Origin: Amoebophrya sp. A120
Taxonomy: Eukaryota; Protista; Dinoflagellata
NCBI GenBank assembly: GCA_905178155.1
Contig: CAJINV010000009.1
Span: 310,001 to 374,000 of the forward strand
Reading direction: 5' to 3'
Length of the DNA stretch: 64,000 bases
Shown here: in pieces, positions 1,854-51,889 of the stretch
Layout of the letters: each line of letters begins with the position of its first letter
How positions within the stretch are numbered: position 1 is the first letter of the stretch
Made by a program: the position numbers and the translations under genes
The notes under the pieces: model-generated
Seen by the model: the letters and a program-made list of their open reading frames with translations, nothing else
The model's database searches: none
Told to the model about the DNA's origin: nothing

Positions 1854-3262
1854 CGAGGCGACGAGTTTAAATGTTTTAAAGCAACATTGGTATGGTCAGG
1901 AGGCGAATGCGATACTCTAGATCATACCGAATGCCAAGTCTACCTTGTCGCAGCTGCTATGGTCATGCCTTTTCGGGTCATAAAGTACTGGAAGAGAGTC
2001 AAGATTCCGGCGAAGACTCTCGGGAAGCAGCGCGGTGTCGACTACGTCCCGAAGACGAGGCGGAGCGACTTCGGCCTCTGTTTTTCTTGCGAGAAGAATC
2101 AGTCGCATGAGGAGAAGAAAAGAGTCGCGCGAGGAGCCGAGGCCCGCCCCTGCGATCGAAGTGCCGCGCGCGCAGGAATGCGCCCCATCCCCAGGCGCCC
2201 GCGTGCGGCGCCCTAGCGCGCGCGCGGGCTTGCCGTTTTCGTCGTCCTGCGCTTTGTTTCCGGCCGTCGTGGTGGGGGCCCCCGCCGTTCGGCCCCGGCA
2301 GGATCTGGGTGGCGGCTGCCGCGCGGGCCCAGTGTCGGCCCATCGCCTAGCGCCCCAGGCCGGCCGGCGCTTGCGAACAATGGCGCTGCGCGCTGCCGTA
2401 GGGTGGGGCCGGGGCGCGCCACCAGACAGCCTCGTGGCGCGGCGCGGGGGTGTCCGGCCCTGCCGCCAGCAGCATCGTGCGAGCAAGAGCGCCACGCAGC
2501 GCAGCTTGGCCGACAACTTCTAGCATTGTTGCTCGTGCTTGTATGGAATGAAAACAAAGAGACGAAAGACGTTTTGGACCTCCGCCTGGAATTGCCATAC
2601 AATGATATGCCATATCTTGTTCGAGGTGTTTCGTTCGTGTCATGATGCAGTGTGGAGCTCTGACGCATGCGCATCCGCAGAAACGTATCGGTGTCGGTCG
2701 TGAGAGAATCATGTAATTGCTGCGTGACTAAGTCTATGCTCCTCGGGGTCCTACATGCAAAGCGAGCTCATGTACTCACCAGAGATCGCTTCTGCCATTG
2801 ATTATTACGACCATGTAAAAGTTAAAGTGTAAGTCAGAGTAGTCTGGTTGCAGGAAAAGGATCTACCTTGCAAGTGCACGCTAGCAAGAATTCCACTTCT
2901 TCTACACCAACTTGATAAACAATAAGAATTATGAGGAAAGAAAAAGTAAAAGATCAAGCCGATGTCGATTGAGGTAGAGTGTATCTTCAGTACGCCCCAT
3001 GTACTTAACTGCTACTCCAAGATCCAAACAACGATCACACGAGTCCGCTACAGTTCCAGAAAACTTCCCCCAAAACTTTTAAGCGAAGCACCTCTCAACG
3101 ATCCTCAACGACTTTCTTTTAGAAACTAAAGAGCAAATACTTCACTCGCATCCTCACTGAATCTACTGAACAGTCCTGCCCTCCTACGTATATTTACCGC
3201 CAATACTCTTCTCCTTTTTTTACGATTTAGTTTTTTCCCGCACATTCCCCACCTCTAACAAA

Positions 3263-4321
3263 ATGCCGGAAGCCGTCCAGACTTTGCTGACCGAGCAGCC
3301 GGATGTGGCCGCCGTCAAGGAAGAGGTCGCCACCCAAGACGACGTCATCGTCGAGGGTCCGGCTCCTACCAAGGAATTCAACGAAAAGAAGTTGAAAGTG
3401 GTATTCGAGTTATACGTTTTTTTGTGCGCGGCTCTTGCAGCTGCAGCTAGAGCAGCAGCTTTAATAGCGGATGAGTTGTTGCATTTGCACAGACAATCCC
3501 GGCACTTCTTTCTTGCCTTGATACTGTCTGGAAAAATTTAGATTCTCCAAACAACAATCCAAAACAGATCGTCAAGGAAGGTGGTAAGCGCGGTGTCGAG
3601 ATCGAGGGCGCAGCTGATATGGGTGGTCTCCAGTTTTTTTGCACGATGATCGAAAAGCCGGAGGGCGACCTGGACCTCCTGATCGAGTCGATGAAGGCCA
3701 TGAACGCCAAATCCAACCCGTCTGAGGAGGAGCGCAAAGGTAGCTAATATGTCTTTTTCGTGAAATTTCCCGCCGAGAGGTCCGTCTGTCTGTGCGCAAA
3801 TGTCTAGAACCACATAGAAGCTCGAGCTCCTACTCGTAATCCAAGCGTTCCCTTGATGCTGATCTCCGAAGTTTTTCATTCATTTTTGCTTCATTTTGCA
3901 TCGATCCTCTTCCGTGACGTCATCTTCAACCACGACGGTTTTCCTATAAAATCTTTCAGGTGGCGCCGGCAAGATCGGAAAGATCATTTTCTCCTGCACG
4001 GAGAAGGCTTTCTCCGCCGTGGCCTACGTTCCGAAGAACAAGGCCGACGAGTGCAGCGCCTTCGAGTGGCTGTCCGAAGTGGTGAACAACGTGGCTGGCG
4101 CGAAGGGCGTCAAGCTGGTGAAGACTTTCGACAACATCGAGTCCAAGTACTGGGCCGCGGTCTGCGTTCCGTTCTCCCACGAGGAGGAGCTCTACCCGAT
4201 CAAGATGCGCGACCCGGCGATCTCCCACGCGTACACATATTTGAAGAAGAAGGGCCTGTTCCCGGAGGACGACTCCGATGACGAAGACGACTACGTCTTC
4301 GGTGACGACGACTTCCCGTAA
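3263..4321 (+). CDS. Conserved hypothetical protein, 3 exons (3263-3400, 3568-3739, 3960-4321)
   Basis: GT-AG introns 3401-3567 and 3740-3959 join in frame: ...KKLKV|IVKEGGKRGVEIEGAADMGGLQFFCT...EEERKG|GAGKIGKIIFS... The protein ends in an acidic tail (DDSDDEDDYVFGDDDFP) and has strong C/G-ending codon bias. Confidence 0.85.
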
Positions 4322-13600: not shown

Positions 13601-16600
13601 GGGAACGGGATGAAGCAGGCGGATTTGGAGTTTCAACGGGCGGTTTTCTTGAATCTCATCGACCTGGATGTTGTGAGTGCGGACGAAGATCATGACCAGG
13701 GTACTAAAAATGAAGACTCAAAAAATGCCGAGCACAGGATTTTGTTCCCGGAACACCAGGCAATTGTCTCTGCTGCTGCTGCTGCTGGCGGCGGTTCTGT
13801 TGTGGAAGAGAGTACAACTCCTTCGACTGGTCCCTCCGGGGAATTACTACTTGCAAGCAGAAGTCTTGCAGTTGCTGCATCGTCCAGCGCGACTGCCACC
13901 ACCACGGCGCCGCCCGACCGTTGCTGCTGCTGCCCAGGTTTTACTCCGATGACGGGAGGGCCGAGTGGTGGTGGTGGTGCCGCGCACCGTCGAACTGCGG
14001 TGAATACCGATGATGAAGATCCTGCAGCAGATGAAAGATCTCCTGGCGAGCTGATCCACTTCGGAACCGAGGGGAAGTACAGGGTTGAAACGCGGTTTCT
14101 CGCCGCTACGGCGGATGCGAAAACCAATCGCTGCGAGTGCGGGTCCGAACTGAAACGGCACATCGCCTGGACCGCGCCCTTGCACGAGTACCGAGTCTAC
14201 TTGAATGATACGTTCAACGACCCGATGATGCCGCACATGGGGTACTACCAGCCCAAACACAAGTTTCCCTACATGCAATCCGCGATTTTGGACACCCTGA
14301 TTTACCAAACGCGGTACCAGCTCATGCTGTTTCCGCCCGCGGTATCAAATGTAAAAATGTCTGGGTCTGGAAGAGTCCGAGACTTGTCATGCTGTTTTTG
14401 CATGACACAGAATGTCTGTCATGGAAGCCCTAGCATCACAGATTTTTAGAGGCCTTCCTGATGCCTATTCCGCATGACAAATGCCCTCCCCGCGTAGCAC
14501 AAACTGGGCTCCTCTTGCTGGTCATGCAATACAGACTTTTTTAGAGTCCAAAGTTAGCATCACAAGTTCCAACCTTCCAGACCCAGACATATTTGCAATG
14601 CATACGCGGCCTACAGCAGCAAGATTTCCGACCCGATGGCCTACAACCTGGACATGGACTTTATGGCGTTCTCAAATGTTACATTCTCAACTGTTACATA
14701 AATTTGCAATGCAAGAACGGCAAAAGTGAAAGGAGGAAGACTGCGCCTTTTGCATTACAGATCTGGCACAGATTTAGATGCTGTTGTGTTTAGCCCTTCG
14801 GATATTTGTCATGCGAAGCAGCTTAATCGTGGCGATCTTGGTGGCAAATTTCAGTTGAGAATGTAACAATTGAGAACGCCATGGACTTCACGCACGGCGG
14901 GTTCGGCCAGGACGCCCCGAAGGTCGTCGATTTGTACGACTGCGTGGACCGCGACCACCACGAAAGCTCCAGCTACGACGAACGGATCGATACGGAGGGC
15001 TACGACTTCCACGGGGAGAAGGTGTACGCGCGGTTTGCCAACACCGGCGGAACGCATTCCGGCCGCAACATCGAGGCCGACTGGTGGCGGATCGGGTGGG
15101 TGGATTTGCAGACGCACAAGGTAACGGTGTCCACCATGGTGTACACCCAGATGGCGGAGATCTTCACGAGTGTCGCCGTGGAATTTGAAATAGACGAAGC
15201 GGGGAACGTGATTGGGCTGACGCGGTTGATGTCCTACGTCGACTTGGACGACTACGGGACCAAGGGGTGGTTCATCTTCAGCAACGTCATGGTGATTGTT
15301 TTCGTCTCCATGGGCGTGGTGCACAGCGTGTATCTGATCACGTGCGGCACAAAGATGACGGTGTCGCTTTGGTACGAGCTGGCCAGTCGGGCGTTCATGT
15401 TGTTCTTCAACCTGTGGCTGCTCATCGGATTTCTGGGTATGTAAGAAATCAGAGATTTTTGTGTGGCTCTTCAAAGGTTCTTAGTACTTGATACTTTCAC
15501 CATTTTGCTGCACTTTGATCTGCTTGTAGAAAAACTAACATTAGGACAGCGATGCAAAATATGCAAAGTTGTCCTTGTTGGCCCGAAAAAAGCAAAATAA
15601 AAATTTGAAAAATCAGGTCTGAAGCCGATGAAGGAGGAATACAACGATTTGATGACGACTTTTTTCACCCTCCACGACTTTTCCTACAAGGGTTTGATTG
15701 GTTCGATCCAGCACTTTTTGGTCGTGAAGGACCACGTGTACGAGGAAAACGACTTGATTTTTCTGTATCGCAAAGTTGCGTTTGCGGTCACGTTGGTCTC
15801 TTTCCTGCAGATGATCCAGTACCTCAACGTCCACCCCCGCGTGGCGACCTTGACGTCCACCATTTTGAAGTCCATCGACGAGATGGCGCATTTTTTCATC
15901 GTGTTCGCGATCCTGTTATAGCGGCGGCAAAAGCTTATTTTTGCGAAAATTAAAAAAAATATTGGGTGGCTTTATCGTGGGCCTCGCAGCCCAGCCGAAT
16001 CATCACGCTTCTGGACTCAGGACGGCGTAAGACCCACGCCAGCGCAGCGCTTACCAAGTTTGCCCTGCCGTGCTGCCGCAAAGTCAAACACATCACACCA
16101 CCGCAGAACCCCTTTCAGAAGGCGCGAGAGGTCGCGTCAGCTTCAACGCTCGCGCACGCCAGGGCGGGCATCGTGGGCAGGGAGCCGGGTCCGTCGTTGA
16201 CCCCTAGACGGGCCAATCCTGCCAGGTCTGCGCCGCTCCAAATTTGGGCGGGGCAGGCGGCGGCCCGGCAGGCGCGGCCGAATCTGGCCAAGCCAAAGGC
16301 ACGGCGTGATATGGAATGGGCGAGCGCCTTGCGCCTCACCAGATGCCCCGGGGCCATGCTCCTGCGCCCCGGTTAGGCGGCATCATCGGGCGCAATGCCC
16401 ATCCCTGATTGCCCGGCGAGGTGCCGCAAAACCCCTCGGCTGCCGCCCACGACCCCTGCTCGGGCGACCGCAATTCCCCAATTGCGCGACGCCCACCCTG
16501 TTCAAGCAGCCCCATTTCTGCAAAGCGGGCAAAAGCGTGGCTCCATCCCAGCCAAGGCGCCTGCGGTTTGGTTACACCTTCCAAGCCACCCCCTAGCGCG

Positions 16601-19600
16601 CCTCCGCCAATTCGCGGGATTCCTTGCAAGAACTACCCGGCGGCATTTCGGATATCAATTTCGCGGAAAACAACCGCCCGGCGACACTGCCAGCACGCTT
16701 GGAGGCTAGAGCACAAGCGCCGCAGCCCTTGGCAGCACGGCGGGGCAACCGGGCCCCCCTTTTTGCAGGTGGGGAACTGATCAGGCGGCCCGCGCAAGGG
16801 GGGCCCGACCGCGGCGCGCCGTGCTCTAGCGGCCCCAACACGGGCGGACGGCAACCCGAAAAGCCCTCTCCGCTGACCGCCGTGCCTTGAGCCGATTTCC
16901 TGAAAAACAAACGGCGGAAAGCATTGGGCCTGGCGCCGCCGCCCCACTGTTTTCCCGGCCCGAGCCGAAGGCCACAGCGCTTGCGCAGTAGGTAAGGCGC
17001 AGAGGCGCGCGGCGCCCGGGCCCCTTTTAGAGGATGCCGAAAACACCAGGACCGCCACGGCCGCCTTACCCTTTCGGCGCGCCGCGCTGCCAACATAGCG
17101 AAGCCGGCCAGCCGGCAATGCAGGGCGGGCGCGGATCAATTTCCCGGGGAAAACACTGCCGGCATGCTGTGGGCCGTGCTTTTTGTCGCTGCTTTTCTTC
17201 GGCCAGACCGCGGGGCGCATGGCGCCAAAACCAGAAGCCAGCGCGCGTGGGGCGCCCGGATCGCCGGCGCTCTTGTTTGCCGGGGCAATCGGGGCCACGC
17301 TTCCGGGCAGCTGCGGAACCCCGCGGCCGTTGCGGAGTGCACGTGGGGCGCGTGCTGCGTGGCCGCCCTTGCCGCCGCTGCTTTCCCACTCTGGGGTCTC
17401 CTCGGCCCCCCCGGACGGGGGGGCCCGGATAGGGTCCTCAAAAGTGGCCCTAAGCAAGAGCGATCCCGCATGCTATGGACCCACTTTGGGGGGGTGCCTC
17501 TTTAGCCTCTCCCGGAAGGTGTTTCCAGTTGCCCGGCCCGCATTCCCGTTGGGAAGCCTCCCAGCCGAAGCTCCGTCGTAGCGACAGGCTTGCCACTTGG
17601 GTTCGGGCTGTTCGGCGCGCGCCGTTCCACGAAAACCTTGTCCATTTAAGGCGGCCAGCTTCCGGACTGTCGGAAGAGAGGGCCCAACAAGTTCGGCTCA
17701 GGTTGCTCCCCCTCCTATTGCTGCCGGCGCATGCTCGGGTGGGGGAGGGGTTTTCCCCCGTTTGGCGCGACCGGGCCCCCGGCGCTTCCCTGGGTTTCCG
17801 CGGGCGGGCGGGCTAGGGACACGACTCGGAGATAACACGCAGAAGGGGTGGGCGGCCGTTTCTTCGCGAGCAGGCGCCGCCTTCCTTGGCCGTGGGTGCG
17901 CATCTGCGTCGCCCTATCCTTGGCCCTCTTTGAAGGTGCCCGACTGGGCGCAGTCGGTCGGACTGGTCGAGCGGGTAGTGTTCGGCCACGTGCTTTGTCC
18001 CGATCCGAGTACGGCGCGGCAAAAAGGAAAGGGACAGGGCTGGCGGCGCTTTTGGCGGTCAATGAGGCCCTCCTGGCCTGGCTTACTCTGCGAACGCCCA
18101 CTGCCCTTGCGAGGCATAACGCACGCAGGAGAGGCAGCCCGCTTGGTGCCGTTTCATGCCCCCCAAAAAAAGGCAAAGGCCCCGCGCTTTGGGGGTGCGC
18201 CGGGCGGCGGGCATTCGGTCGGGCCAATCGCTCGCCACGCCCCCTCCAGGTGCCGGGGCGGGAGTGAAACCTGCGCAGCGACCAAGAGTTTCCGCCCCTC
18301 CAGCCCGGAGTTTGGTTGCGGTACTCCGGGAGCAGGCGCTCTGCCTCCCAGGTTTCAAAACGGGCGCGGCTTTTGGCCGCCGCGCGTTTCCGGGGCTTTT
18401 TTCATGTTCTCCAGCAAGTGCGGTGACCCTTTCGCGGCCCCTCTGAAACCCCGGCGCGCCAGGGATCGCCCCTCCAAGGGCCAGCCGCCAGAGCCGGTAG
18501 AAAAGCTGTAAGAGCCGCCGGGCGACGCTTCAGAAAGGCCTGCGGGAGGCGGAAAGCGCAAAACCCTAGCAGCCCGGGGCGCGTTCTTATTTTCTCGTGG
18601 CCATTGCTCGAGGCCTTTTCACAAGCCTGGCAAGGGAATGTTTCTCCTCGCCACATCTCCCCCGCCCATCCTGCTGCCCGGCGCGCTGCCAAAACACATA
18701 TGCGAGGCCACTGGCAAGCATGCCACCAGGGCCCGCGTGCCGGCGGCTCCACTACTATCGGCGCAGGTCTCGGCGGGGCATCGAGCCAGAGCCCGGGCCC
18801 GCGAGTGCAGTGCACTTCGTAAGGCCCAACCCCCCGGCCCTATCATTTCTGTCAACCAGGCGCCTGACCATCTTTTTCTCCGATCAATTCCAACCGCGGC
18901 TGCACAGGCGTCGCAGCCGAGCATGCTCGACACACGTTGCGATGGTAGTGCTCTTCGCGGCCAGTATCTATGACACCCAATGTTTTTTTTAATTTTCCAA
19001 AAAATAAGCTTTTGCCGCCACTATACCTGTTATGGATTGCAAAAATGTCTGGGTCTGGAAACTTGTAATGCTGCGTTGGGAATAATGAATGCTCTGTAAT
19101 GCATAGCCAAGCATGAGAAATATCTGTGCTGCTTTGTGTTGCATTTTTCGCATGACAGCCTGGGTTTTTGCATGACAGGCAAAAGTGCTTCTTCTTGGAC
19201 ACGCATCACAAACTTTTTGGTCATGCCAGGCAAGCACGACAAATCTCGCAATCTTCCAGACCCAGACACTTTTGCAATTCATACCTGTTCGTGGTGATGG
19301 CGTTCATCGGGCATTGGCAGTTCGCATCGATGCTGCCCGCGGACTTTGGGACCTTCGGCCGCGCCGTGGAGTGGCAGTTTCGGATGATCATCGGCGACTT
19401 CCCCTTCGACGGGTGGATCGAGTTGGACACCACGCAGCAGTTGATGTACTGGCTGTACCTGATATCCACAGTAAATTTCCCGTACACGACGTACAAATGC
19501 AGTCTCTGCACGACAAAACTTGCCTTCAATCCTAGTCTAGCATGACGAATTGGACACTGCAAGTTAGCGAAATTTGTCATGCATTTTGTACATGTACGAG

Positions 19601-20688
19601 AAATTTACATTGCATACCTGATTCTGTTCGCGCTCATCATGTTCCTGACCATGATGAACTTCTTCCTTGCGATCATCGTGGACGCTTTTGTGGAGGTGAA
19701 GCAGGACATCCACGACCAGAAGACGGAAAACTCCTTTCCCTTCGACTGCATGGACATGTTCAAGGACTGCTCCAAGTACTACACCACCCGGGGGTACCCG
19801 AACAGCCGCGAGGTGCTCGACGCCCTGAGCGAGGCGGACGAGCAGGACGAGATCGCGCGGCGCATTTACACGAAGGAGAAGAAAAAACACGATCCGGATT
19901 TTCACTACCCGGTCACCGCAAAGGACTTGGCTTCGTACAACCTGCGATCCATCGAAACGGAGGCGCAAGCGGTGGAGTTTCTAGTGCGGTACGGAATAAA
20001 AACGCCGGAAATCGTGTTTAGAACGAAGGTAGTATTTGAGTGGGAGCTTTTTTTTTTCAGGTTGTGAGATCGATAGATACTTATTGCTTCTTTGCACTTG
20101 TTTCACTTTTCAAGTATGGGAATTTGCAGCGGGACGTAGAACTAGAACCATTTTATCTTGCTCGCTATACAATTACAAAATATCTAGCGTGCGTTTTGAA
20201 CAAAACAAAATCAGGGTCTCATGGTATTCAAGAAGCTCTCTGAAATGGCGAAGCGCGACGCAGGAACGCTCTCCCCAGAGGCCCTTCAGGCCATCTACGA
20301 CGCCACGGACCAACGCGGGCAGCGCAAGCAGACCGGTGGCCGCCAGGTTTCTTCCAACTGGCGAAAAGTCATGGACCGTGTGGGCGGTGCGGACTTGCGA
20401 AGCTTGGCAGCAGCTGTATGAGATTGCACAACTCCCCCTCCCCCTCAATTGTATGGTATGAGCAGCAATTCAGACACCAGCTCAAATGGAGCCTGCGCAT
20501 GACAAACCTGCACACGGATTGTAGTTCTGTTTGTGGCTCCAAGATTTGTCATGCTAACTGTGCTTACAGACAAGATGTGGATTTGGGTTTTTGCATCACA
20601 AATGAGGGGGAGGGGGAGTTGTGCACTGTCATAAGCTGCAGCGGCCGGGGGCTCCTCCTCGCGAGCATATGAATACCAGGACGCCTAG
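10648..20688 (+). CDS. Polycystin-2/TRPP-like cation channel with a very large extracellular loop, interrupted by canonical introns and six TAT..ATA elements
   Basis: S1 is LNFFIYFLFFLVAIYIFY. Removing the elements gives a contiguous S4-S6 region: LQMIQYLNVHPRVATLTSTILKSIDEMAHFFIVFAIL|FVVMAFIGHWQF...FGTFGRAVEWQFRMIIGDFPFD...WLYL|ILFALIMFLTMMNFFLAIIVDAF. Putative GT-AG introns are 11368-11511, 13112-13181 (or -13142), 15437-15616 and 20029-20214. Stop is TAG at 20686-20688. Confidence 0.82.
14343..14604. mobile_element. Introner E1 (262 bp), 5-bp TSD CGCGG
   Basis: Ends are TATCAAATGTAAAAATGTCTGGGTCTGGAAG and CTTCCAGACCCAGACATATTTGCAATGCATA (TIR). CGCGG occurs at 14338-14342 and 14605-14609. 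Removal restores FPPA|AYSSK. Confidence 0.92.
14662..14883. mobile_element. Introner E2 (222 bp), 5-bp TSD GACTT
   Basis: TIR TATGGCGTTCTCAAATGTTACATTCTCAACTG / CAGTTGAGAATGTAACAATTGAGAACGCCATG. GACTT occurs at 14657-14661 and 14884-14888. Removal restores LDMDF|THGG. Confidence 0.9.
15917..19025. mobile_element. 3.1-kb TIR DNA transposon (TAT..ATA ends, 5-bp TSD CCTGT) inserted in a coding exon
   Basis: 52-bp TIRs at 15917-15968 and 18974-19025 (48/52 identical by eye). CCTGT occurs at 15912-15916 and 19026-19030. The interior is GC-rich and decayed. Confidence 0.92.
16150..17860 (-). pseudogene. Decayed hAT-superfamily transposase remnant (boundaries approximate)
   Basis: Minus-strand motifs occur in hAT order across frameshifts and a stop: PFCVL/SES (about 17830, DES-like); MDKVFVE...GKPVA/YDGAS (DGAS at 17566-17577); FRERLKRHPPKVGP*HAGSLLLRATFEDPI (CxxH-like region, about 17470); PRALASGFGAMRPAVWP (TRWxS-like, about 17240); SISRRAFGL...ADLAGLARLGVNDGP (ERxFS...LMRIxxNGP dimerisation-like, about 16190-16310). 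Confidence 0.6.
19031..19283. mobile_element. Introner E3 (253 bp), same family as E1 but in inverted orientation, TSD CCTGT
   Basis: TIR TATGGATTGCAAAAATGTCTGGGTCTGGAA / TTCCAGACCCAGACACTTTTGCAATTCATA. CCTGT occurs at 19026-19030 and 19284-19288. Confidence 0.92.
19463..19616. mobile_element. Introner E4 (154 bp), TSD CCTGA
   Basis: TIR TATCCACAGTAAATTTCCCGTACA / TGTACGAGAAATTTACATTGCATA. CCTGA occurs at 19458-19462 and 19617-19621. Removal restores WLYL|ILFAL (channel S6). Confidence 0.9.
20417..20633. mobile_element. Introner E5 (217 bp), TSD AGCTG
   Basis: TIR TATGAGATTGCACAACTCCCCCTCCCCCTCA / TGAGGGGGAGGGGGAGTTGTGCACTGTCATA. AGCTG occurs at 20412-20416 and 20634-20638. Confidence 0.92.
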
Positions 20689-21727
20689 GGCGGCGAGATG
20701 ACATCTGGCATTGCCCGCATGAGAAAACCAAAGAAGCAAAGTACCGTGATTGACGTGAACAGCGGTGCTGGAGGTGGCGACGAGTTACAGCGTTCGGCCA
20801 CTTTTGTTGAGTTGTAAGACTAAGAGTTGAATTTTTCATCCTAAGTAAATAGAAGTAAGAACACGTTCAGTTTTACTCGTCTTCAGTGCATAGAGAAGGT
20901 TTATTTCCTGCTTTTTTCGAAGGTCTCAGCTGCCTTGTAGGATGTTTGCACACAACAAGAAGGGCTCGCACGATTGGTATTCGTTGCCAGCTTTAATGCA
21001 GGCGATAGAGTAAAGATCTAACAAACAGTTACGTACGTCAATGTTATCAAGTCGTGCATAGGTCCTCGACTTCATCTTTTCTTAGCCTGTACATAACTAG
21101 GTGAAAGTTCTTCAAGTATCTATGCCTATCTACATCTCTTTATCTTTACGCGTATATGCATCCCATACTTGATCAATCCTACTAACTTTCGAGCTTTTTT
21201 CCCTTTCAATTTTGCATGCGGTTTTTGGTCTAGTGTCATTCCCATTCCTATGGCGTAAAAATACAGAGGCCGCTAGTTTCAGAAATTGTTTTTGTGTTAC
21301 ATCAACGGAACCTGCACAGATCTACGCGTACGAAAGGAATTTTCCAGCAAGCGTGTCATTACATGCAATTCTGTCGTTGAAGCAAGCAGTTGTTTTGCAA
21401 AGACAGACCCTGGTGTTAGTTCTGAATTTGAATACGTATGTCGGAAGATGTAAATAACAGATGATCCACATCCATAGTCTTCTTTCGCTCTCGGTAGTAG
21501 TTGGATCAAAGTCAAAAGAATGGTTGTAATCTCATCCGCTTGAAGGCCATGCATGTTCGTACCAGGACCCCACTTACCTTCATCCAGCCACCAAGTACGG
21601 CTCTTCCTAACTGACAAACTTCTTGCCTCGTGGCCGATTCCGATCCTGACTTAATGACCACTTTGACAAGCTAGTGATGTATGGGTTGCCGCAGCCGCTA
21701 TCCGCAAAATAGTTTTCATTCCTCATC

Positions 21728-24307
21728 ATGCCGCCTGGTCGTGGTCTTCGTTGGAGGAAGAAAGACGACACCTCCAGCAGCGCACAAACGGGCAAAAACG
21801 ACGAGACAAATTTCACACAAAGAAATGCGGCGCAGCCTTCCTCAGCTGGAAGTCGTTCCTCTTTTCAGCCCCCCGACAGAGCTGAGTCCGCCGCGATTGG
21901 GGTATCGATTCCTACGGAAGGAGGTGGAGAAAAGAATGTCGCTATTGTTTGGCACAAGTGGAGCGATTTGCGACTGCAGGACCACGAGCCGGCGTGGCAT
22001 GCACATCGGGCGTCACCTAGAATGGGTAATATGGAAGACAGAAACAATAAAGCATCAACTTTCGATGCTGTTTTACATGTCCACCTGATTGAGCACGACT
22101 TGCTCTATGGGCGGAGCGAGCAAGCAAATCTTCCCCGCTGTTCTCCGCTTCGGGCTCGTTTCTGGCTGGAAAGCGTTTTGGATCTGGACGCGAGCCTGCG
22201 GAAGGCAAAAGTTGTAGACGGGGGTGCGAACACGTGTCCGCAATTTCTCCATGTCGAAGTTGTCGGTGGTGACGAGGATGATGGTGATGCAGAAGTTAGT
22301 GGATCGCTTCTGGTCACTGCAAGCGCTGCCGTTCTTTCATCGTCCTCCACGGAGCAGCCGCCTCTACGCAAGCAGATGACACCAATGGCAAGAGAAGACG
22401 AGGAGGATATAATTGGGGTGAAGAATGCAGACCGCCAGATTTTACCGGGGCAGAGAAGATGGCGCAAAGAGAAATCGGAAGCCGTGGCAAATTGGTTCGG
22501 TGAGTTTTTTCTCAAGCAGAGAAAGAACGTGGCCCCGCCGTCCACCGCTTTCCACCTAGTGACCCATCAAGAATTGTGTACAGAAGAGGTGAAAACTGAG
22601 CAGGCCGTGCGCGCTTCCTTGAACGCCCTTAATAACGCAGGCACTGTTGCAGCAGCTCCAGCAGGTACGATTCGGATCCCTTTCACGTGGCGAACTTACT
22701 GGGGCGGTCAGACAGTGCACCACATCCAGGACCTCGGTTTCAACCCGGAAACCGAGTCTGACATGATGCCCCTGTTCAAGGGCGAGTTTAACAAAATGGC
22801 CAAGAAACGGCCGATACGGGAAGTGCTGCTGTTTTCGAAAGACTCGGAGTTCCGCCCATCGCTCAAACAGTTTTACGTCGACAGGAGCGCTTTCGAAGAC
22901 AGAGTGCATAGGATTTTCAAAAAGGCCCTCGCACCAGATCGACAGGTATATTTGCAGAGGCTTTTACGTGGACGAGCAGGAGGGAACAACAAAGCAGAAA
23001 CTGACGGCGCGACCGCCCCTACTTCGGTGATCGGCCCAGCTGCTCCCTACACCCTGCAGAATTCCTTCGAGCACCGTTGGCGCGGCGGCGAAAGTATGGC
23101 CCAGCAGTATTTGGAAGACTTTTTCAAAACCGGTGACAATTTGTGGAATTACTGCGGTGCGACGGAATCGTTCGCCCACGGGGCTGACCACAATCCCATC
23201 TTCTCTGGCACGCGCTTCAGTCCCTGGCTGGCGTTCGGCAATGTGTCCGCCCGGATGATTGTGAAGAAAGCGTACGACTGCGAGAAAAGATTCGGCGGCT
23301 TTTACCGGCCGACGAAAGGAGGTGGAAAGAAAGGCAAAGGAAATAGTACAGGCAAAGGGTCTGCTGGAAAAACATCAGGGTCAACTGCGCAGCGGCTGCA
23401 CACGGAGCTCCTCTTTCGCGACTTTCTCCGGTTTTCCGCGTACTTTTTGTGGAAAAAGAAACTTTTCTGCCTCGAGGGGCCGATGGGGTTGGAGAAGGCC
23501 GACATTTTCTGGCGGGCGAGAGCAAAACCCGAGACGCAGGAACTGTTTCGCAAGTGGCAAGTAGGCGAAACTGGCTTTCCCTTCGTGGATGCGGGGATGC
23601 GCGAATTACTCAAAACCGGGTACCTGTCGCACCTGCACCGGCAGTGCTGCGCTTCGTTTTTGGTGCGCGATCTGGAGATCGACTGGCGATTCGGGGCGGA
23701 GCACTTCGAGGCCACTTTAATCGATTACACGCCGGACGCGAACTGGGGGAACTGGGCGTACCGAATCTTGCCCCGTCCGTGTCTCGCTGCGACGCGTAGA
23801 AAATTCAAGGAGCAAAGTAAAAAGAGGGAGGCAAGAAGTAGAAGCAGTTCAAGTTCTGCAGATGATCAGAATTTCGTGCCACATTTGAGCACCTTGGAGT
23901 GTGTCGTTTGGCCCATTGTGCACGATCCCGAACTGGAGCATACACTGTTTTGGGTGCCGGAATTGAAAAGGATTCTTGAGAAGTTCGGGCCCGACTGCGC
24001 CAGAGAGCCCTGGACGATTGGAGCGAAAGGTGGAGAGACAATTGTGCAGATCCGGCCGTATCGAGACTCGCCGCTCTGGTTCTGTGCAGCGAACCGAAGC
24101 AATTGGGATTACGAATACTTCTGGCTGCGGAACGCTGTTGGGACCGTTGATTACAGTGGTAAGCAAGGCGGGAACAAAAAGCTAAATAGCAGCACGAGTA
24201 GGAACGATGAAGAAATCTATCACCTCCCCCTGATTCCGCCTGTCAGCGTGACCGTCGATCTGAGAAAATTACCAGTGCAAAGGTTTGTTTGGGAAAGGAC
24301 AGTCTGA
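21728..24307 (+). CDS. Cryptochrome/photolyase family protein, CRY-DASH-like (859 aa, intronless)
   Basis: Motifs VWHKWSDLRLQDH, GGES, TRFSPWLAFGNVSAR, ELLFRDF and WQVGETGFPFVDAGMRELLKTGYLS...RQ..ASFLVRDLEIDWRFGAEHFEATLIDY...NWGNW. Confidence 0.9.
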   Translation: MPPGRGLRWRKKDDTSSSAQTGKNDETNFTQRNAAQPSSAGSRSSFQPPDRAESAAIGVSIPTEGGGEKNVAIVWHKWSDLRLQDHEPAWHAHRASPRMGNMEDRNNKASTFDAVLHVHLIEHDLLYGRSEQANLPRCSPLRARFWLESVLDLDASLRKAKVVDGGANTCPQFLHVEVVGGDEDDGDAEVSGSLLVTASAAVLSSSSTEQPPLRKQMTPMAREDEEDIIGVKNADRQILPGQRRWRKEKSEAVANWFGEFFLKQRKNVAPPSTAFHLVTHQELCTEEVKTEQAVRASLNALNNAGTVAAAPAGTIRIPFTWRTYWGGQTVHHIQDLGFNPETESDMMPLFKGEFNKMAKKRPIREVLLFSKDSEFRPSLKQFYVDRSAFEDRVHRIFKKALAPDRQVYLQRLLRGRAGGNNKAETDGATAPTSVIGPAAPYTLQNSFEHRWRGGESMAQQYLEDFFKTGDNLWNYCGATESFAHGADHNPIFSGTRFSPWLAFGNVSARMIVKKAYDCEKRFGGFYRPTKGGGKKGKGNSTGKGSAGKTSGSTAQRLHTELLFRDFLRFSAYFLWKKKLFCLEGPMGLEKADIFWRARAKPETQELFRKWQVGETGFPFVDAGMRELLKTGYLSHLHRQCCASFLVRDLEIDWRFGAEHFEATLIDYTPDANWGNWAYRILPRPCLAATRRKFKEQSKKREARSRSSSSSADDQNFVPHLSTLECVVWPIVHDPELEHTLFWVPELKRILEKFGPDCAREPWTIGAKGGETIVQIRPYRDSPLWFCAANRSNWDYEYFWLRNAVGTVDYSGKQGGNKKLNSSTSRNDEEIYHLPLIPPVSVTVDLRKLPVQRFVWERTV

Positions 24308-30654: not shown

Positions 30655-31331
30655 GTAGAAGGTGGTGAGCAGACACTTGTCGCGCTCCTGGATACGACTC
30701 GTGTTTGGAACATGTATTCCGTAACTCTTGCTCAAGCTCCTCAAGGTCAAGAGTACGTACTACTGAAATCCCGACTACTTCGAACGCCGTGCAAAATTTT
30801 TGTGCCGGTGTGCCTGGCCTCGGCTTGTTTGTAACAATTGTACGTGTACTTTGAATTTGAATGATTTGTAGCAAGGAACGAAATAAATTTATGTATTTTT
30901 CACGAAGAAACGATTTTGTACTTGTAGCCAAAGGGGAACGAACATTGTTCCGGATTAAAAAAGGAGAGTTTGGCTGCTGTTCCGTCGGTAGCTCTGTGTG
31001 AGCGTAAGTACCGAACATGTAGCACTTATTCCAAATCCAGTTCCAAAACTAAATCTGCTTCGTCGTCGTTGGGTCCAGCTTGCTTCAGAGTGCTGGTTCG
31101 GTGTACTCTTTCTCCCGCTCCTCAGGCTAAATCAAAAACGAATCGGGTCCTGGGTTGTGTGAAGAATATCAATGAACAGTAGGCCGAAGATCCGGGGGGC
31201 GAGAACGATGTGCATCAAAAAGGGGTTTCAAAGAGAGGTGATCACATCAAAACCAAAAGCGTTAACCTTCTGAAGAAATAAACATTCGATCTTCCGAGAT
31301 TAGTATACGCTAACGAAAAAGATACCCGATC

Positions 31332-32672
31332 ATGCCAGCTTCAGGTTCCTCAAGTTTTTTTTGCTGTGGTGGGGGAGCATCGAGCTCCAAACGCCACGGT
31401 GCGAGCGATTCAGCGGCAGACTCAGGTCAAAAGCGCCAGCGACAGTCTGGCTCCCAGTCGAACCCAGAAGACGGAGAAGGAGAAGGCCAGGACGAGGCGG
31501 AACAGATGACGTACCAGTGCCGCCCCGCCGCGTCCTGCCATCTGCATTACGCATTTGGACCGATGCCGGAGCTGCTTTCAGGAGGAGCAAATACGACCGA
31601 CGTCGCGGTTGAGGTAGGAGCAGGAGAGCAAGACGAGGAAAGCAAGGCCGGTAACAGCACGAGTACGGCTCCAGTGGTTCTAGACACGAAGCCGAAAAAC
31701 CTGGAGATGGCCCTGTTGCAGTCCGTCACCGTCGAGCATTCCGCTCGTTGCACCTACTTCTGTGTGGTGCAGTTCCCACCTGCCGGCTACTGTGGGATCC
31801 AAGAGCGCGAGAACGGTGAGAAGATTGCCATTTTCTCGGTCTGGGACCAGCGGGAGGGGGACGTGGCAGTGGTGAACGCGGGCCCGTCGGTGTATTCCGA
31901 GCCCTTCGGTGGCGAGGGTACCGGCCAGAAGTTGTGGCGGCATTTCGGATGGCAGATTGGCGAGGTTGTGACCTTCTGCGTCCGCGTCATGACCGAAGAA
32001 GACGACCTGAGCATGTGGCGATTCTCGTGCGACGTGCTCACGGTCGTCGTCGAGAGAGATATGGCGTCGATCGAAGCGACACAAAGAGAAACAGAACCAA
32101 GCCCAAGTGCGAACGCAACGAGTCGGTTGGTAGACGAAGCGGGCAACGCCGTTCCGGAGGACCAATTAGCGAAGGAGGCGCTGGACGATTTCGAGAGGAG
32201 CACCGCAAGTGGCGAGACGTCCGGAAGGAACAAGGACCCGGGCGGAAATAAAACGAAGTACAAGATCCACCCCATGGGGACGTTACGTGTCAAGTGCACC
32301 GCTGCGGCGGTCAATGGCTTTTCCTCCTTTGTTGAGGACTACGACCGAGTGCCGAACGCAAGTGGCCTGTTCTGTTCGCGCAAAGCCCATTTCGGCGGCG
32401 AACCGAAGTGGTGGGTAAGGACGAAGAAGAGTGTCGCGGGTGCTGAGGGTGCTGGTATTGATGCTGTTACTGGGCCCTTTTTTCAGCAACGAAAACTGAA
32501 AAAAGTCTCGTTTACGAAATGCAGCCAGGCTGCGGAGGCGGAGGGGGCGACGACGAGATGTTGTGGGGTAGCGAATGGCGGTCTAAGCTACTGCTTGGAG
32601 ACCGGAGGAAGTGAAGCCTTTTCGCAAGTCACAGAAACTGAAAAAACGTTGTTTCAGAGGACGCCTCCGTGA
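31332..32672 (+). CDS. DUF3472/DUF5077-like domain protein (446 aa)
   Basis: Motif series TYFCVVQF..GYCGIQE....KIAIFSVWD...FGGEGTG.K....FGWQIGE...F.V...FSSFVEDY. Confidence 0.7.
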   Translation: MPASGSSSFFCCGGGASSSKRHGASDSAADSGQKRQRQSGSQSNPEDGEGEGQDEAEQMTYQCRPAASCHLHYAFGPMPELLSGGANTTDVAVEVGAGEQDEESKAGNSTSTAPVVLDTKPKNLEMALLQSVTVEHSARCTYFCVVQFPPAGYCGIQERENGEKIAIFSVWDQREGDVAVVNAGPSVYSEPFGGEGTGQKLWRHFGWQIGEVVTFCVRVMTEEDDLSMWRFSCDVLTVVVERDMASIEATQRETEPSPSANATSRLVDEAGNAVPEDQLAKEALDDFERSTASGETSGRNKDPGGNKTKYKIHPMGTLRVKCTAAAVNGFSSFVEDYDRVPNASGLFCSRKAHFGGEPKWWVRTKKSVAGAEGAGIDAVTGPFFQQRKLKKVSFTKCSQAAEAEGATTRCCGVANGGLSYCLETGGSEAFSQVTETEKTLFQRTPP

Positions 32673-39997: not shown

Positions 39998-40999
39998 ATG
40001 AATCGAAATGCTCACCGTGACCGGCCAGCAGCCCGGGAGCGTAGCCGTAGCGTGCAGAAGCGACGGCCGTCTGCGGGTGGTCCGCAACAGGACATGTTTA
40101 AGAACGGCGACCGCACACTGCGCATCCGCAATCTGTCCCGCAACGTGGAGGAGCCGCACTTGCGCGAAATTTTCAAAGCCTACGGAACCGTAAAAAGGGC
40201 ACTGATCGGGCGCGACCAGAAATGCAACGTCAATCTCGGGTACGGTCTCGTCGAGATGTATGGAAGCGTCAGGTTTGAAATCGACAAAGTTGAAATGATT
40301 TATCATGCATAAAATGGATGCCAGTTGCAACCCAGGTTGCAAGTGGCGCATGACAAATTTGGTTGGAGCCGAAATCCAGTTTGTCATGCTGCTTCGGCAC
40401 AGAAGATAGCTTTTGTCATGCTACTTTAGCAGCTCTGTCCCAAACCCTAAACAGGCTCACAATCGGCCTCACTTGCCATCCCTGCAACACAGGCACTTCA
40501 TGCTTTGCATTTTATGCATGACAAACCATTTCAACTTTGACGATTTCAATCCTGACACATCCATAAGATGGCAACCTTCAAGGAGGCGGAGCAGGCGGCG
40601 GATTGTTTTCACGGCGGCTGGATCGATGGTAAGGAGGTGGCCGTCACCATTGCAGATCCGGACGCCGGGCGTGCCGGGACCGACAGCGACAAAAATCAGG
40701 TAGCGTCGAAAAAGGACGTCACCAACAAGCCAGGGCGCGCCGCAGGGGCCTCGACAAGAGGTGGGGGCACGACTTCTACGGCGAAAAATACTAAAGCCGC
40801 CGCCAAGCAAGCAGCAGCCCGGGGCAAGAAGGTGCAGCGGAAGCAAGTCGTGGAGTCTTCCTCAAGTAGCGAGTCAGACAGCGGCAACAGTTCCTCGTCC
40901 AGCGGAGAAGCAAATTCCTCCTCCTCAGAAGAGGAGGAGGAAAACTCATCGTCCTCGGAGTCAGAAGAGTCAGTGCGACCCAGAAAGAAAAGGGCTTGA
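39998..40999 (+). CDS. RNPS1/SR45-like RRM protein, interrupted by introner E6
   Basis: Reconstructed RRM: LRIRNLSRNVEEPHLREIFKAYGTVK...LGYGLVEM|ATFKEAEQAADCFHGGWIDGKEVAVTIA, which resembles the RNPS1 RNVTKDHIMEIF...GGQIDGQEI pattern. Ser-rich tail. Confidence 0.8.
40259..40565. mobile_element. Introner E6 (307 bp), TSD AGATG
   Basis: TIR of about 58 bp: TATGGAAGCGTCAGGTTTGAAATCGACAAAGTTGAAATG... / ...CATTTCAACTTTGACGATTTCAATCCTGACACATCCATA. AGATG occurs at 40254-40258 and 40566-40570. Confidence 0.93.
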
Positions 41000-47526: not shown

Positions 47527-50500
47527 ATGGACTACTACACAGCTGATGCACAAGAATTTGGGAACAAAACTATAAAAGAAGAAAATATCGTTATTGAAAT
47601 TGATGATATCAGAGAGAAGAAACCGAGGCGCATCTTCCGGGTCCTGCAGTTCCTTTTGGTTACGTATACTAGTATTCGTGTACGACCTAGTTTGCTCGTT
47701 GTCTGCTGCGGCTGCGTCGCATTTTTTGGTGCTTTCTTGCCTGCGGCGTCTGCGGCCGGTGGGGAGGAAGTACGAGAATCCTTCGCGAAGGATGAAGGTC
47801 TTGTCGAGCGCAACCAGGTGGCGGTCGAGGACGAAAACGCGGAAAAATCCTTCGGAGATGAGGCCAACAGCGCCGGTCAGCATTTTCGTCCTCTTGAGAG
47901 AGCAAGCGCTCGTCCGAAAGACGAGAGTGAAAGACGAGCGAGCAAAACGCACCTCCTTACATTCGCCTCGCATGGAGTGTATAGGCAGGTTCAAGACATC
48001 GCGGAAAGAGAGGCAACCGCTGCCGGTTTCGCTTCCCACGTTCGCTGGAAAGCCTCTATGACTTGCTCAACCGTTACAATCTCCAACGTTACAATAAAAT
48101 CTGGAAGTTGTGTTGCAGGATGAGCACGACAGACTCGCACAGCGTTCTACCTTTTGCAATACAAATTTCGCCAGATTGTAGTGGGGTTTGGGTCTCCGGA
48201 ACTTGTCATGCGCAATCCTATGAGAGTTGGCTAGATCATGCACTCTTGCATCACAGATTTCCATATTCTATTGCAACGCTTTAGATTGTAACACCTGAGC
48301 GGGTTATAGCCTCGCAGTTGGCGTTCTGGAATGATCGGGAAAGAGCGGCGCGCCTCTTGTACGTGTACGCCCAGCATGATGTTGAGCCAGATGCAGATCG
48401 TGATCAACTAGACGAGAATAAACATCAGCCAGATGATCGCCACGGAAACCTTCATAATACGACCCAGGAGCAGGAGGATGCCCCTCACAAGAACCGAAAC
48501 ATCGAGCCTGTCACTGTTGGGGCTTTCGCAGAAACAAACAGCCTTGGGAGCCCAGAGGGGACTCCTGCATCCACGACTACGTCCACCTCGGAATTGGAAT
48601 TGCTCAGCGCACCTGGTACTAAGGCTGCGAGTCGTTGGTGGGCCCAGACGAGGGGGCCTCTTTTTCAGAAAATTTTCGAGGCTTTCGGCACAACCTACCC
48701 CTATTTGAATCCAGCCTATTTCGCAAAGGCCGTCACTCTGATTGAGACCCTCTTCGATGTCTCTGAACAGCGGTCACCGACGTCCTGTGCCAGAAGTGAG
48801 GGGAACCAACTGGACTCGTCTACCAAGACGACGGAAAAAGCCAAAGCATTGGCAACCAGCATCCCTAGTGCTACAACCGATGGAGATATGAATGGGCGTA
48901 CTGATGAAGAGACGCAGCCTACAACGCCGGCGACTATTGTTCAGCCGGAAACTACTACACCAGGGCCAGAGTTGAGGACGTCGATTGCAGCTGCGCAAGA
49001 GTGCGAATCGCCGCCGAGGATTGGCTGGGGTGACTACGTTCTCGTGACAGACCCAACGAAGCATTTGGTGGATGAGACTGAGTCTGGAAATCTGGTCGAG
49101 GCTGTGGTCGAGGAAGAGGTATCTGCGACATATCCTCCTAGCAGCAAGACTGTGATTGAGGCGCCATCTAGCAATCCTACAGATACAGGGCAGCATGAAC
49201 CTCCGAGACGAGAAGGAGGCAATCAGGGAGATCTGTTGCTCACAGACTGGCGTCTGTTGAACACCGCCGGGGTCTCGTTTTTGCGCGATTTGAATGCAAC
49301 AGATCTTGAGACGCTGCAAACCCTGGCGGCGCAAAATGAGCGGCTTCCTCTCATTCCCGGGGTGCGGTTGCCGCCCAGTGTACGGTGGGAGTATTCCACG
49401 GAGCGGTTCCGCACACCATGCACCGACTGGCTCCTAAAGAGCCCCCACGTCGCGTACGTCTTTCGCCGTTACCTGGTCTTGCTCCTGCGCCGAGCGTGGC
49501 GTAGCGGCCCGGCACCGCTCTGGCTGGAGCGCTCCAAGATCATGGAAGGCCATCAAGCAAGTGCGGTGGAGAATAGCGGGGAGCTCAGGCAGTTGCCCCG
49601 TGCTGCAGCCGCGCCCCCTGCGAATTCTGAGAAAAGCAACGGCAGCAGTGCTGCTGCATTTTCCACCGAAAGCGAAGACAGCACAGACGCACCGCCCGCG
49701 GCTGGAGATGCATCTTCAACATGGTGGACGTCAACCTCAGAGGCCCCGCGTTCCGACAGTAAACGCGTGCACGGGGACGAACAAGAAGATATGAACAAAC
49801 GCGATGTGTACCGGGTGAAACACTTCCCGGACTCGGCCTACAGTGATTTTCTGTCGTTCGTTGACTTGCCTGCTTTGTGGCACAACGTAACTGGAGGACA
49901 GCGACAAGCTGCCGGATCCGGATCAGCATCGGAGGCTAACGAGATATCACAGCCGAAAAATGAAGACCGGTGGTGCTTTGCTCACACACGACTGGTTTTG
50001 GTTCACAAAGCGCTGCGTTTGTTCTTTTCGGCGCGCCGCGGTCAAAATGTAGGTGAGCCTAAAGAAACTCGGAACCGAGTAGAGCCGCAGTCGCTCCCCC
50101 ACGAAATCACGCCACTGATTTCTCCGATTGACGCTTTCACGACGGGGTGCGTTGAGGTGGAGCTTCTCGTCAAACAAGAAGCTAGGTACATTGGGCCGGC
50201 TATATGCGGCCTTTTTGCAGCAGGATCTGATGCAGCCTGCACGCCGGCCGGACATGTGAATGAACAAGGGAGCGACTCGCAAGAACTCCGGGCGCAACAG
50301 TTTCACGACCGATGCTTCTGGCACTGGCAGACCTATTCCCCCATGCACCAAAACACATGGCTGTTTCTGCGGAAAACGGTAGGTAATTTCCACTTTCTCC
50401 GGCTGTGGTTGCGGCTGCTGCACGACACGCGGCTTCTATCCAGTTTTCCCTTTGTGGACCAGAGTCCTCTGGGCCACCTGATTCGGGCTCTGAACCTCCG

Positions 50501-51889
50501 CACTTTTGCCGTCCCGTCGTTGTACTACCCACGGCTAGGCACGTGTCCTGTCTACGACCTGACGGAAAACTATCCAGAAAAAACGACCCATGCCCACCTA
50601 ATTTGTCATGTGAACCATGCACCAGAGTGAGTCCTGTCCAAAGGCTGTCGCTTGTCATACAAAAAATAGACCACTGGGAGCGAGTGGGATAGGGTCTGTT
50701 TCTTTGAATAAACACGAGAAGACGGCAATGCTCCGCGAACGCTTTCTTGAATTCGACAGCAAAACTCTCGGGAACGAAGACGGGCAGCAGATCGAGCCAC
50801 TGCACACTGACACTGCACAAACGCACACATCACGAGGAACCGCTGCAGATAAGGGCACGGCAACACATGACGCTGATCATGCGCTTGATGAAACAAGCCA
50901 CCCTGTTGAACAAGACACGCGACGGCCACAGGAGTCGGCGGAGGTCCTGAAGCACGGGAGGTCGTATGCGGTACTAGATCAGGTGATGCCAGTATCGCCC
51001 TACGGCGTTCCAGATTTTTTCCCCGTGAACAAACGGTACAAAACGCCGTTCTGTGCTCCCAATTCCAACCGTATCGTGCAGCAGATGCACGGCCTGGGAA
51101 ATATCCTGTACAAAAGTATCGCACTACGTACTCGTACTATTTGCAGTCATGTGCTACAGATCTACCTTTCTATCTGATCTAGCATATAAGTACAAATAGA
51201 TTGCATTTTTGTCTTTATTGTGGTGCTTCATCGTAAAATTTGTCATCGTCATTGTGATTTCTACTAGAGCGAGGTAACAAATGACCCGTTAACTCGCGCC
51301 CGCGAGTTAGCCGTCCGCCCGGCCGGCCGGACGGTTAACTCGCGGTTAGAAATGTAGACAAATCGAAAGGTAGCACAAATTTGAATCGAAGTGCTCGCCA
51401 ATCCTTGGCGAGCCCTTCGGGGTAGATTTGCACCACAATTCGATTTGTCTACACTTCTAACCGCGAGTTAACCGTCCGGCCGGCCGGGCGGCCGGCTAAC
51501 TCGCGGGTGCGAGTTAACGGGTCATTTGTTACCTCGCTCCTAGTAGTACGATACTTTTGCAATGCATAGATGATGCGGTGAAGCAACTCGGGAAGCTCAC
51601 AGCGCAGTTGCGGCTTTCACGTTTGCGTTTGCTCCGGGAGAAAGCCGAACAGGTCGAAGCAGAGACTGACCACCAGCACCTTCCCGCCGATGTTGTTCGG
51701 CCGGTAGAAAAGAAGGACACAGGTGTAGGTGAGTCTCCTTCGCCGGGGGACTTCGGTAGCAGATCGGAGGAGGAAGAAAAGGCTGTTGGGGCTTGGATGC
51801 TTCTGCCGTCAGAGTCGTCCCTGCAAGACTTCACGCCCTTGACTATCGGGACCTTTCTGCATGATCTGTTTCTCGAGACCGCGTTCTAA
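47527..51889 (+). CDS. Large type-II-membrane-like hypothetical protein (exons about 47527-48056, 48314-50626, 50670-51115, 51570-51889)
   Basis: N-terminal hydrophobic segment. Removing introner E7 joins RWKAS|QLAFWND. Putative GT-AG introns 50627-50669 and 51116-51569 join in frame. Confidence 0.65.
48057..48308. mobile_element. Introner E7 (252 bp), TSD GCCTC
   Basis: Imperfect TIR TATGACTTGCTCAACCGTTACAATCT / AGATTGTAACACCTGAGCGGGTTATA. GCCTC occurs at 48052-48056 and 48309-48313. Frame is restored on removal. Confidence 0.9.
51102..51568. mobile_element. Aged introner-like element E8 (TSD not conserved) containing a MITE
   Basis: Left end TATcctgtaCAAAAGTATCGcACTAC compares with the reverse complement of the right end TATgcattgCAAAAGTATCGtACTAC. 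Flanks GGAAA and GATGA do not match, but removing element plus 5 nt stays in frame. Confidence 0.6.
51267..51539. mobile_element. Fold-back MITE (273 bp), 3-bp TSD CTA
   Basis: Near-perfect hairpin: GAGCGAGGTAACAAATGACCCGTTAACTCGC... / ...GCGAGTTAACGGGTCATTTGTTACCTCGCTC, with arms of about 100 bp or more. CTA occurs at 51264-51266 and 51540-51542. Confidence 0.88.

Follow-up and report, generated by a model that had tools for sequence, protein, structure and literature searches.

A 3.1-kb TAT..ATA element in a polycystin-like gene of Amoebophrya sp. A120 is removed from the transcript together with an adjoining introner

The long element, its host gene and its removal from the transcript

We examined 64,000 nucleotides of contig CAJINV010000009.1 from Amoebophrya sp. 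A120 (referred to as the window), in which a 3109-bp element with terminal inverted repeats (TIRs) interrupts an exon of a plus-strand gene resembling PKD2/polycystin channels. This element, hereafter the long element, occupies positions 15917..19025, begins with TATAG and ends with CTATA, contains no long open reading frame (ORF), and belongs to a low-copy family. Its two 52-nt TIR arms (left, 15917..15968, plus strand; right, 18974..19025, minus strand) are 92% complementary and start with TAT, nine further nucleotides and AAAA, and the interior has a GC content of 64-70% over most of its length. The host gene was assigned from three weak Pfam matches, all below curated cut-offs; one of these, to PF08016 (E 0.0011), lies in the exon directly upstream (15616..15911, plus strand). 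An Rfam search returned no matches.

The long element is followed by a 253-bp introner, and the two are punctuated by three plus-strand copies of CCTGT in the order CCTGT, long element, CCTGT, introner, CCTGT. The first copy of this target-site duplication (TSD) is exon sequence (15912..15916), the second is common to both elements (19026..19030), and the third marks the point at which the exon starts again (19284..19288). These five bases are the longest exact duplication flanking the long element. The introner itself (19031..19283) begins with TATGG and ends with TCATA, has a 35-nt TIR and seven GCATGACA-type motifs, and belongs to a very high-copy family with a summed contig depth near 4e5. 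An earlier note on this DNA had described the long element from its sequence, and its coordinates, TAT..ATA ends, TIR, exact 5-bp TSD and exonic site were all confirmed; the adjoining introner and the common TSD were absent from it. The note had also held that short introners bear the same hallmarks, and this is the case for seven short elements of 154-307 bp in the window (14343-14604, 14662-14883, 19031-19283, 19463-19616, 20417-20633, 40259-40565 and 48057-48308), each of which begins with TAT, has TIRs and is flanked by an exact 5-bp TSD.

Contigs from RNA-type sequencing runs show that the long element and its neighbour are spliced out of the transcript together, at non-canonical sites. 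The joint 15911->19284 is present in contigs of all three such runs (X3, X4 and X5) and corresponds to a compound non-canonical intron of 3372 nt (15912..19283, plus strand; 3109+5+253+5), comprising the long element, the introner and two copies of the TSD. The cut point of this intron can slide by 6 nt within the repeat, and none of the possible positions gives a GT-AG reading. Once the intron is removed, the downstream exon (19284..19455, plus strand) is in frame, and the spliced host model is free of stops over 857 codons. Removal was seen only jointly with the 253-bp neighbour. The X4 contig, which is 6325 nt long and differs from the window at no letter, also contains the joints 14337->14605, 14652->14880, 19455->19615 and 20411->20634 and the GT-AG joints 15435->15616 and 20026->20213. 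The first of these GT-AG introns is skipped in X3, X4 and X5, the second in X4, and every other introner is likewise gone from the joined contigs. The two DNA runs (X1 and X2) have an unspliced contig across 15300-15960, and no contig listed for either contains the 15911->19284 joint.

Low-depth contigs of X3 are identical to the interior of the long element at 17597-17779 and 18288-18456, indicating that the RNA-type sample carries the insertion and that an empty allele is unlikely. Thus, while the RNA-type and DNA runs come from different samples and contigs are no proof of splicing, we consider it very improbable that the joined contigs derive from a strain or allele in which both insertions are missing and that the long element is not spliced, given that the same contigs lack the other introners and the GT-AG introns without a single differing letter, and that no empty-site joint is listed for the DNA runs.

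Predicted end duplexes differ in stability: -67.0 kcal/mol for the long element, -49.4 for the short neighbour and -12.7 for the outer ends of the compound intron. Because the outer ends pair poorly, these values suggest that removal takes place in two steps or across two adjacent hairpins. TIR hairpins would guide removal by either route.

Copies of the long element and its relation to short introners

Contig depth summed over the interior is 148-335 in X1, compared with 41 for single-copy sequence, and 46-210 in X2, compared with 25; pieces from other copies are about 90-95% identical to the copy in the window. A TIR scan of metagenome contigs returned one match, on contig L001, which contains the right end and 538 bp inward at 94.6% identity, ungapped, with a new flank, before the contig ends. 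This copy is inserted into a short introner belonging to the 40259 family, near base 262 of 307 and just at a GCATCAC motif. Both readable insertion sites are therefore at introners, one exactly in register with a TSD and the other inside the introner. Targeting of introners and better survival at such sites both fit this pattern. Scans of viral contigs with the long-element TIR and with hAT motifs returned no matches.

Contigs of X3, X4 and X5 also contain another copy, about 95% identical over 15916-16837 and followed by 45 foreign letters, which is a truncated, deleted or interrupted relative in the RNA-type sample. Elsewhere in the window, a TAT..ATA element without an exact TSD (51102-51568) resembles the 151-bp introner of L001 and encloses a fold-back palindrome of 286 bp (51261-51546, 88.5%), whose CTAG ends are flanked by TA. 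The palindrome is a second nested insertion and perhaps a miniature inverted-repeat transposable element of the Tc1/mariner type.

All three minus-strand frames of the long element contain stops, and the L001 stretch is also broken in reading frame. Differences between copies were distributed 10/10/9 by position modulo 3 (p 0.97), and a second set of at least 38 positions gave 15/11/12 (p 0.71); three indels in the long element are among the differences listed. The absence of codon periodicity and the small number of listed indels suggest that no coding constraint acted while the copies spread.

The base composition of the interior is skewed: between 15970 and 18970, AA/TT occurs at 1.84 times and AC/GT at 0.65 times its expected frequency. 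At 23 AT-GC differences between the window and L001, the G/C letter is in L001 at 17 and in the window at 6 (p 0.035), and the changes are mostly A/G on one strand. These letters suggest that a directional AT-to-GC process may act on the long repeat. A link to 5-hydroxymethyluracil (5hmU) is speculation. Enrichment of 5hmU at repeats has been described for one dinoflagellate, and a TA/TC preference is reported in one species and was not found in another; the passages on this do not mention Amoebophrya (PMC11572971, PMC11071213).

Only the TAT..ATA ends and the 5-bp TSD are common to the long and short elements. Their TIR sequences diverge past the first bases, the short introners have a GC content of 37-47% compared with 64-70% in the long interior, and blastn of the long element against ten short elements (the seven in the window and those at 2731-2881, 2985-3285 and 3426-3678 of L001) gave a best E of 0.28, with no internal homology. 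We therefore rejected the idea that the short introners are internal-deletion derivatives of the long element. In contrast to the long element, in which the motif GCATGACA(A)/GCATCACA has no occurrence where about one is expected, all ten short introners contain it (39 occurrences in both orientations), even though their families are otherwise unlike. Two canonical introns also have none.

Subterminal repeats are transposase binding sites in Ac and Hermes. The GCATGACA motif is a candidate transposase or splicing-factor site. If it serves as a transposase binding site, as in Ac and Hermes, a master element would be expected to contain it; if it acts in splicing instead, the copies in the neighbouring introner may supply the signal for the long element. 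The GCATGACA word was not found in the supplement of Farhat et al. (PMC7789003). The lack of an open frame, of coding constraint, of internal homology to the short introners and of their shared motif further weakens the role of master transposon that the earlier note had proposed for the long element.

Two further observations concern the short elements. Length plus 5 is divisible by three in 9 of 11 TSD-flanked elements (6 of about 8 families), the long element included. A 140-bp TAT..ATA candidate at 50571-50710, which contains the motif twice and whose TSD copies differ at one base (AAAAC/AACAC), is likely an older introner.

Among the other features of the window are an intron-free photolyase/cryptochrome ORF (21713-24307; PF03441, E 2e-32), whose closest proteins are from dinoflagellates (41-54%), and a DUF3472 ORF (31314-32672). 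Long ORFs with Pfam matches nearly all share the plus strand, an arrangement like that of dinoflagellate gene arrays.

The search for a hAT transposase in the interior

The earlier note had read five degenerate hAT transposase motifs on the minus strand of the long element. The letters are present and in the order claimed, but they are spread over three frames. Furthest upstream in the coding sense is a word that we add to the five, KGLEQWPREN (18589..18618), which is similar to EKWxxEN, an N-terminal block in C17orf113-like hATs, and is not significant (tblastn E 0.24). FCVLS/VISES (17822..17844, with VISES at 17836 in frame 1) is a candidate first catalytic-Asp region that spans a frame change, and it is likewise not significant. 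KPVA (17591, frame 0) is stitched to DGAS (17577) in frame 2, and YDGAS (17566..17580) is the strongest single hAT-like word. LKRHP..HAGSLLL (17452..17505, frame 2) marks a candidate CxxH region with a stop and without CxxH. The candidate RW region (17233..17249) can be read as HARWL in frame 0 or as RALAS in frame 2 (17247), of which HARWL is the closer RW reading. RRAFGL..LARLGVNDGP (16187..16306, frame 1) is a candidate C-terminal dimerisation region with no PF05699 match. All of these are on the minus strand. Taken as a hAT motif set, the interior has DGAS and one RW, while the first D and the E are not intact (chain p 0.11-0.53). Single words are mildly uncommon by chance: in 1000 null sequences, YDGA occurred in 0.9%, DGAS in 6.9% and the C-terminal pattern, which was fitted afterwards, in 1.1%.

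We then compared the interior with hAT transposases gathered through protein searches and from eukaryote-like contigs in metagenome-assembled genomes (MAGs). Many hAT and rva_4 transposase genes are present in several MAGs of bacteria and archaea (L002-L149), one of which has as many as 82 PF05699 matches compared with none in 14 control genomes; these genes are likely contamination from eukaryotic hosts. Profile 1 was built from 22 ORFs kept from 57 genome-contig motif matches after removal of chance matches in bacteria, of ORFs that were short or broken, and of near-duplicates; DUF4371 was found in all 8 of the ORFs checked. Profile 2 used 99 of 150 proteins and profile 3 used 55 of 120, both kept by length. 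Profile 3 represents a ZNF862/C17orf113-like clade, with an ORF from L109 and 55 relatives, many with PF25431.

A significant hAT profile match in this copy, one part of the test that the earlier note had set for its proposal, appeared in none of the searches run. Pfam gave no matches on six whole frames and 13 pieces, and hmmsearch and tblastn against the interior gave none with sets of 22, 20, 99 and 55 hAT-type proteins. Local alignment that allows for frameshifts and GC drift scored 16-21, compared with null means of 17-19. Mutated in-profile controls (64-68% GC, 15 frameshifts) scored 49-195 and more heavily decayed ones 12-57, so deep decay would mask a true fossil. Whole-profile forward scores were also within the null for the three profiles (z -0.44, +1.09 and -0.45); mutated in-clade controls reached z 22-205, and cross-clade controls exceeded z 4 in 3 of 8 pairs. 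The reversed sequence reached a score of 32, which is an artefact of its composition (Markov null 33.5). A homologue search with the YDGAS region retained 0 of 2068 candidates at E <= 10, and a PDB search gave a single match, which was unrelated (E 1.5).

Chains of motif blocks from profiles 1 and 2 were equalled by 25, 7, 31 and 10 of 60 Markov nulls and fell on positions other than the motifs of the earlier note. The seven-block chain of profile 3, in contrast, landed on VISES, YDGAS, the C-terminal LARLGVNDG and the N-terminal GLEQWPRENK. Of 100 nulls, 13 and 11 did as well as this chain in the two settings, and 53 and 36 did as well as chains of shorter blocks. Three sites from the earlier note were hit in both settings (four in one), together with the new N-terminal block, at p ~0.12. 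The motif set is thus not shown to exceed chance, and neither the profile, the frameshift-aware nor the chain tests established a decayed hAT transposase inside the element. The likeliest reading of the interior, although at somewhat less than even odds, is the fossil of a hAT transposase gene of the ZNF862/C17orf113-like kind that has drifted strongly towards GC; we treat this as a lead, not a result.

Mobilisation of the long element and comparison with known systems

The long element is probably a real, mobile, spliced and non-autonomous element, a long variant of the known introners of A120. It has the features of that type, namely TAT-started inverted repeats (IRs), a border direct repeat of 3-5 nt (CCTGT) and repetition in the genome. 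It is likely a cut-and-paste transposon that does not encode its own enzyme and persists within an exon because splicing removes it. A DDE transposase acting in trans would bind the TAT..ATA ends and insert the element with a 5-nt stagger, and the interior would no longer be coding, the spread having happened in that state. The family, being of kilobase scale with the ends and TSD of introners, offers a concrete probe for the missing A120 enzyme, and the GCATGACA motif is a candidate binding site. The 3372-nt intron, with its two hairpins and weakly pairing outer ends, allows a direct test of one-step versus two-step splicing. If the hAT link fails, what is left is a long introner within a known system.

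Several points weigh against this interpretation. Runs X3-X5 represent one sample from one study; their RNA label was guessed, and none of the listed runs is recorded as RNA. Their contigs reveal neither strand nor splicing intermediates, and the host gene is not covered by the RNA runs available as raw reads (X8-X10). The family size of roughly 4-8 copies comes from X1 depth, and summed contig depth is not equal to copy number. The single other copy was read at one end, and its TSD and full length lie outside that stretch. The TIR, with TAT, 9 nt and AAAA, is two bases off the A120 consensus of TAT, 7 nt and AAA (PMC7789003), a consensus from which several short elements also depart. Finally, because the long element does not contain the internal motif of the short introners, its splicing may be due only to its neighbour.

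Farhat et al. reported two putative transposases in strain A25; in A120 they found none, an absence that in their view ruled out general transposase-mediated mobilisation (PMC7789003). Gozashti et al. classed most of 58 A120 families as TIR DNA elements of unknown superfamily and none as hAT; fam65 was classed as Mutator, and fam135, despite a terminus match to hAT5/hAT6, as a retrotransposon without long terminal repeats (PMC12130899). Our literature search turned up no paper naming the A120 introner enzyme; subscription papers and Repbase were outside its scope.

It is possible, if on the unlikely side, that long and short TAT..ATA elements were both moved by an integrase-like transposase of the IS3EU/GingerRoot/Ginger2 type and that the hAT-like words are chance. 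IS3EU and GingerRoot have TA..TA termini and Ginger2 makes 4-5-bp TSDs (PMC10045372), and A120 fam38, which has integrase-like homology, was classed as Ginger with a '5-bp TSD, TA/TA termini' (PMC12130899). However, the TSDs of IS3EU and GingerRoot are usually 6 bp (PMC10045372). Neither Pfam nor tblastn detected an integrase-like transposase in the interior, where a decayed copy could escape; tblastn of 12 ORFs from rva_4 loci against the long element gave no match and was not followed by a frameshift-aware test of those ORFs, and fam38 was compared by description only.

The proposal of the earlier note, that a hAT family with 5-bp TSDs generated the short introners, is not supported, with no significant hAT match and with mismatches in motif and TIR, and we now regard it as unlikely that the long family is a hAT5-like fossil whose enzyme mobilised them. 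TSD length and TAT..ATA ends are identical in the short introners, the size of the element and its 52-bp TIR are compatible with an autonomous transposon, YDGA is infrequent in the nulls, the best profile 3 chain falls on three sites of the earlier note (DES-like, DGAS and C-terminal) and on a further N-terminal block, and both readable insertion sites are at introners. A hAT5 lineage with 5-bp TSDs also exists (Kapitonov and Jurka 2007, as cited in PMC12730594), although the TSD of the long element fits other superfamilies as well. Against this stand the absence of Pfam, hmmsearch and tblastn matches, alignment and forward scores within the null, a chain p of 0.11-0.13 at best, the lack of CxxH, the presence of GCATGACA in 10/10 short elements and its absence from the long one, short TIRs that differ after TAT, and the 0 of 58 A120 families classed as hAT (PMC12130899). 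In its fullest form, the 3.1-kb family would be a GC-eroded hAT5-like fossil of the ZNF862/C17orf113 type, spliced and homing to introners, whose enzyme lay behind tens of thousands of TAT..ATA introns and whose code was erased by an AT-to-GC process directed at transposable elements and so missed by profiles; we find this an improbable account.

It is similarly doubtful that the interior is a hAT fossil whose family moved only itself or was cross-mobilised, with the short introners using another enzyme that binds GCATGACA. The weak motif trend would agree with such a separation, and so would the differences from the short elements in motif and TIR, as would the 1,954 IR families of A120, which suggest more than one mobiliser (PMC7789003). 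However, the hAT signal is not significant, and the identical TSD length and terminal trinucleotide would then be coincidental or reflect a filter that splicing imposes.

Compared with known systems, the long element has the 5-bp TSD and kilobase-scale TIR structure of the hAT5 lineage, with faint words in hAT order, but differs in having no significant profile match, no CxxH and no open frame; hAT5 is known here by description only. It resembles ZNF862/C17orf113-like hATs in its DGAS, C-terminal L..L.R..V.GP-like and N-terminal E.W..EN-like words, which occur in the same order, but their spacing is about 0-40% longer and they are spread over three frames (chain p ~0.12). The TA..TA termini of IS3EU/GingerRoot are also found on the long element, whose TSD is 5 bp rather than the usual 6 bp (PMC10045372). 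A120 fam38 matches the long element in its 5-bp TSD and comes close to it in TIR length (49-53 bp), but is about 808 bp long (PMC12130899). In comparison with the A120 introners of Farhat et al. 2021 (PMC7789003) and Gozashti et al. 2025 (PMC12130899), the long element is far larger (3109 bp compared with a mean of 240 nt in the analysis of Farhat et al., which covered 40-1000 bp only), lacks GCATGACA, and is removed in tandem with a second element that shares its TSD. It nevertheless shares with them TAT-started IRs, a border direct repeat, the absence of a transposase ORF, insertion into exons, and removal at non-GT-AG sites.

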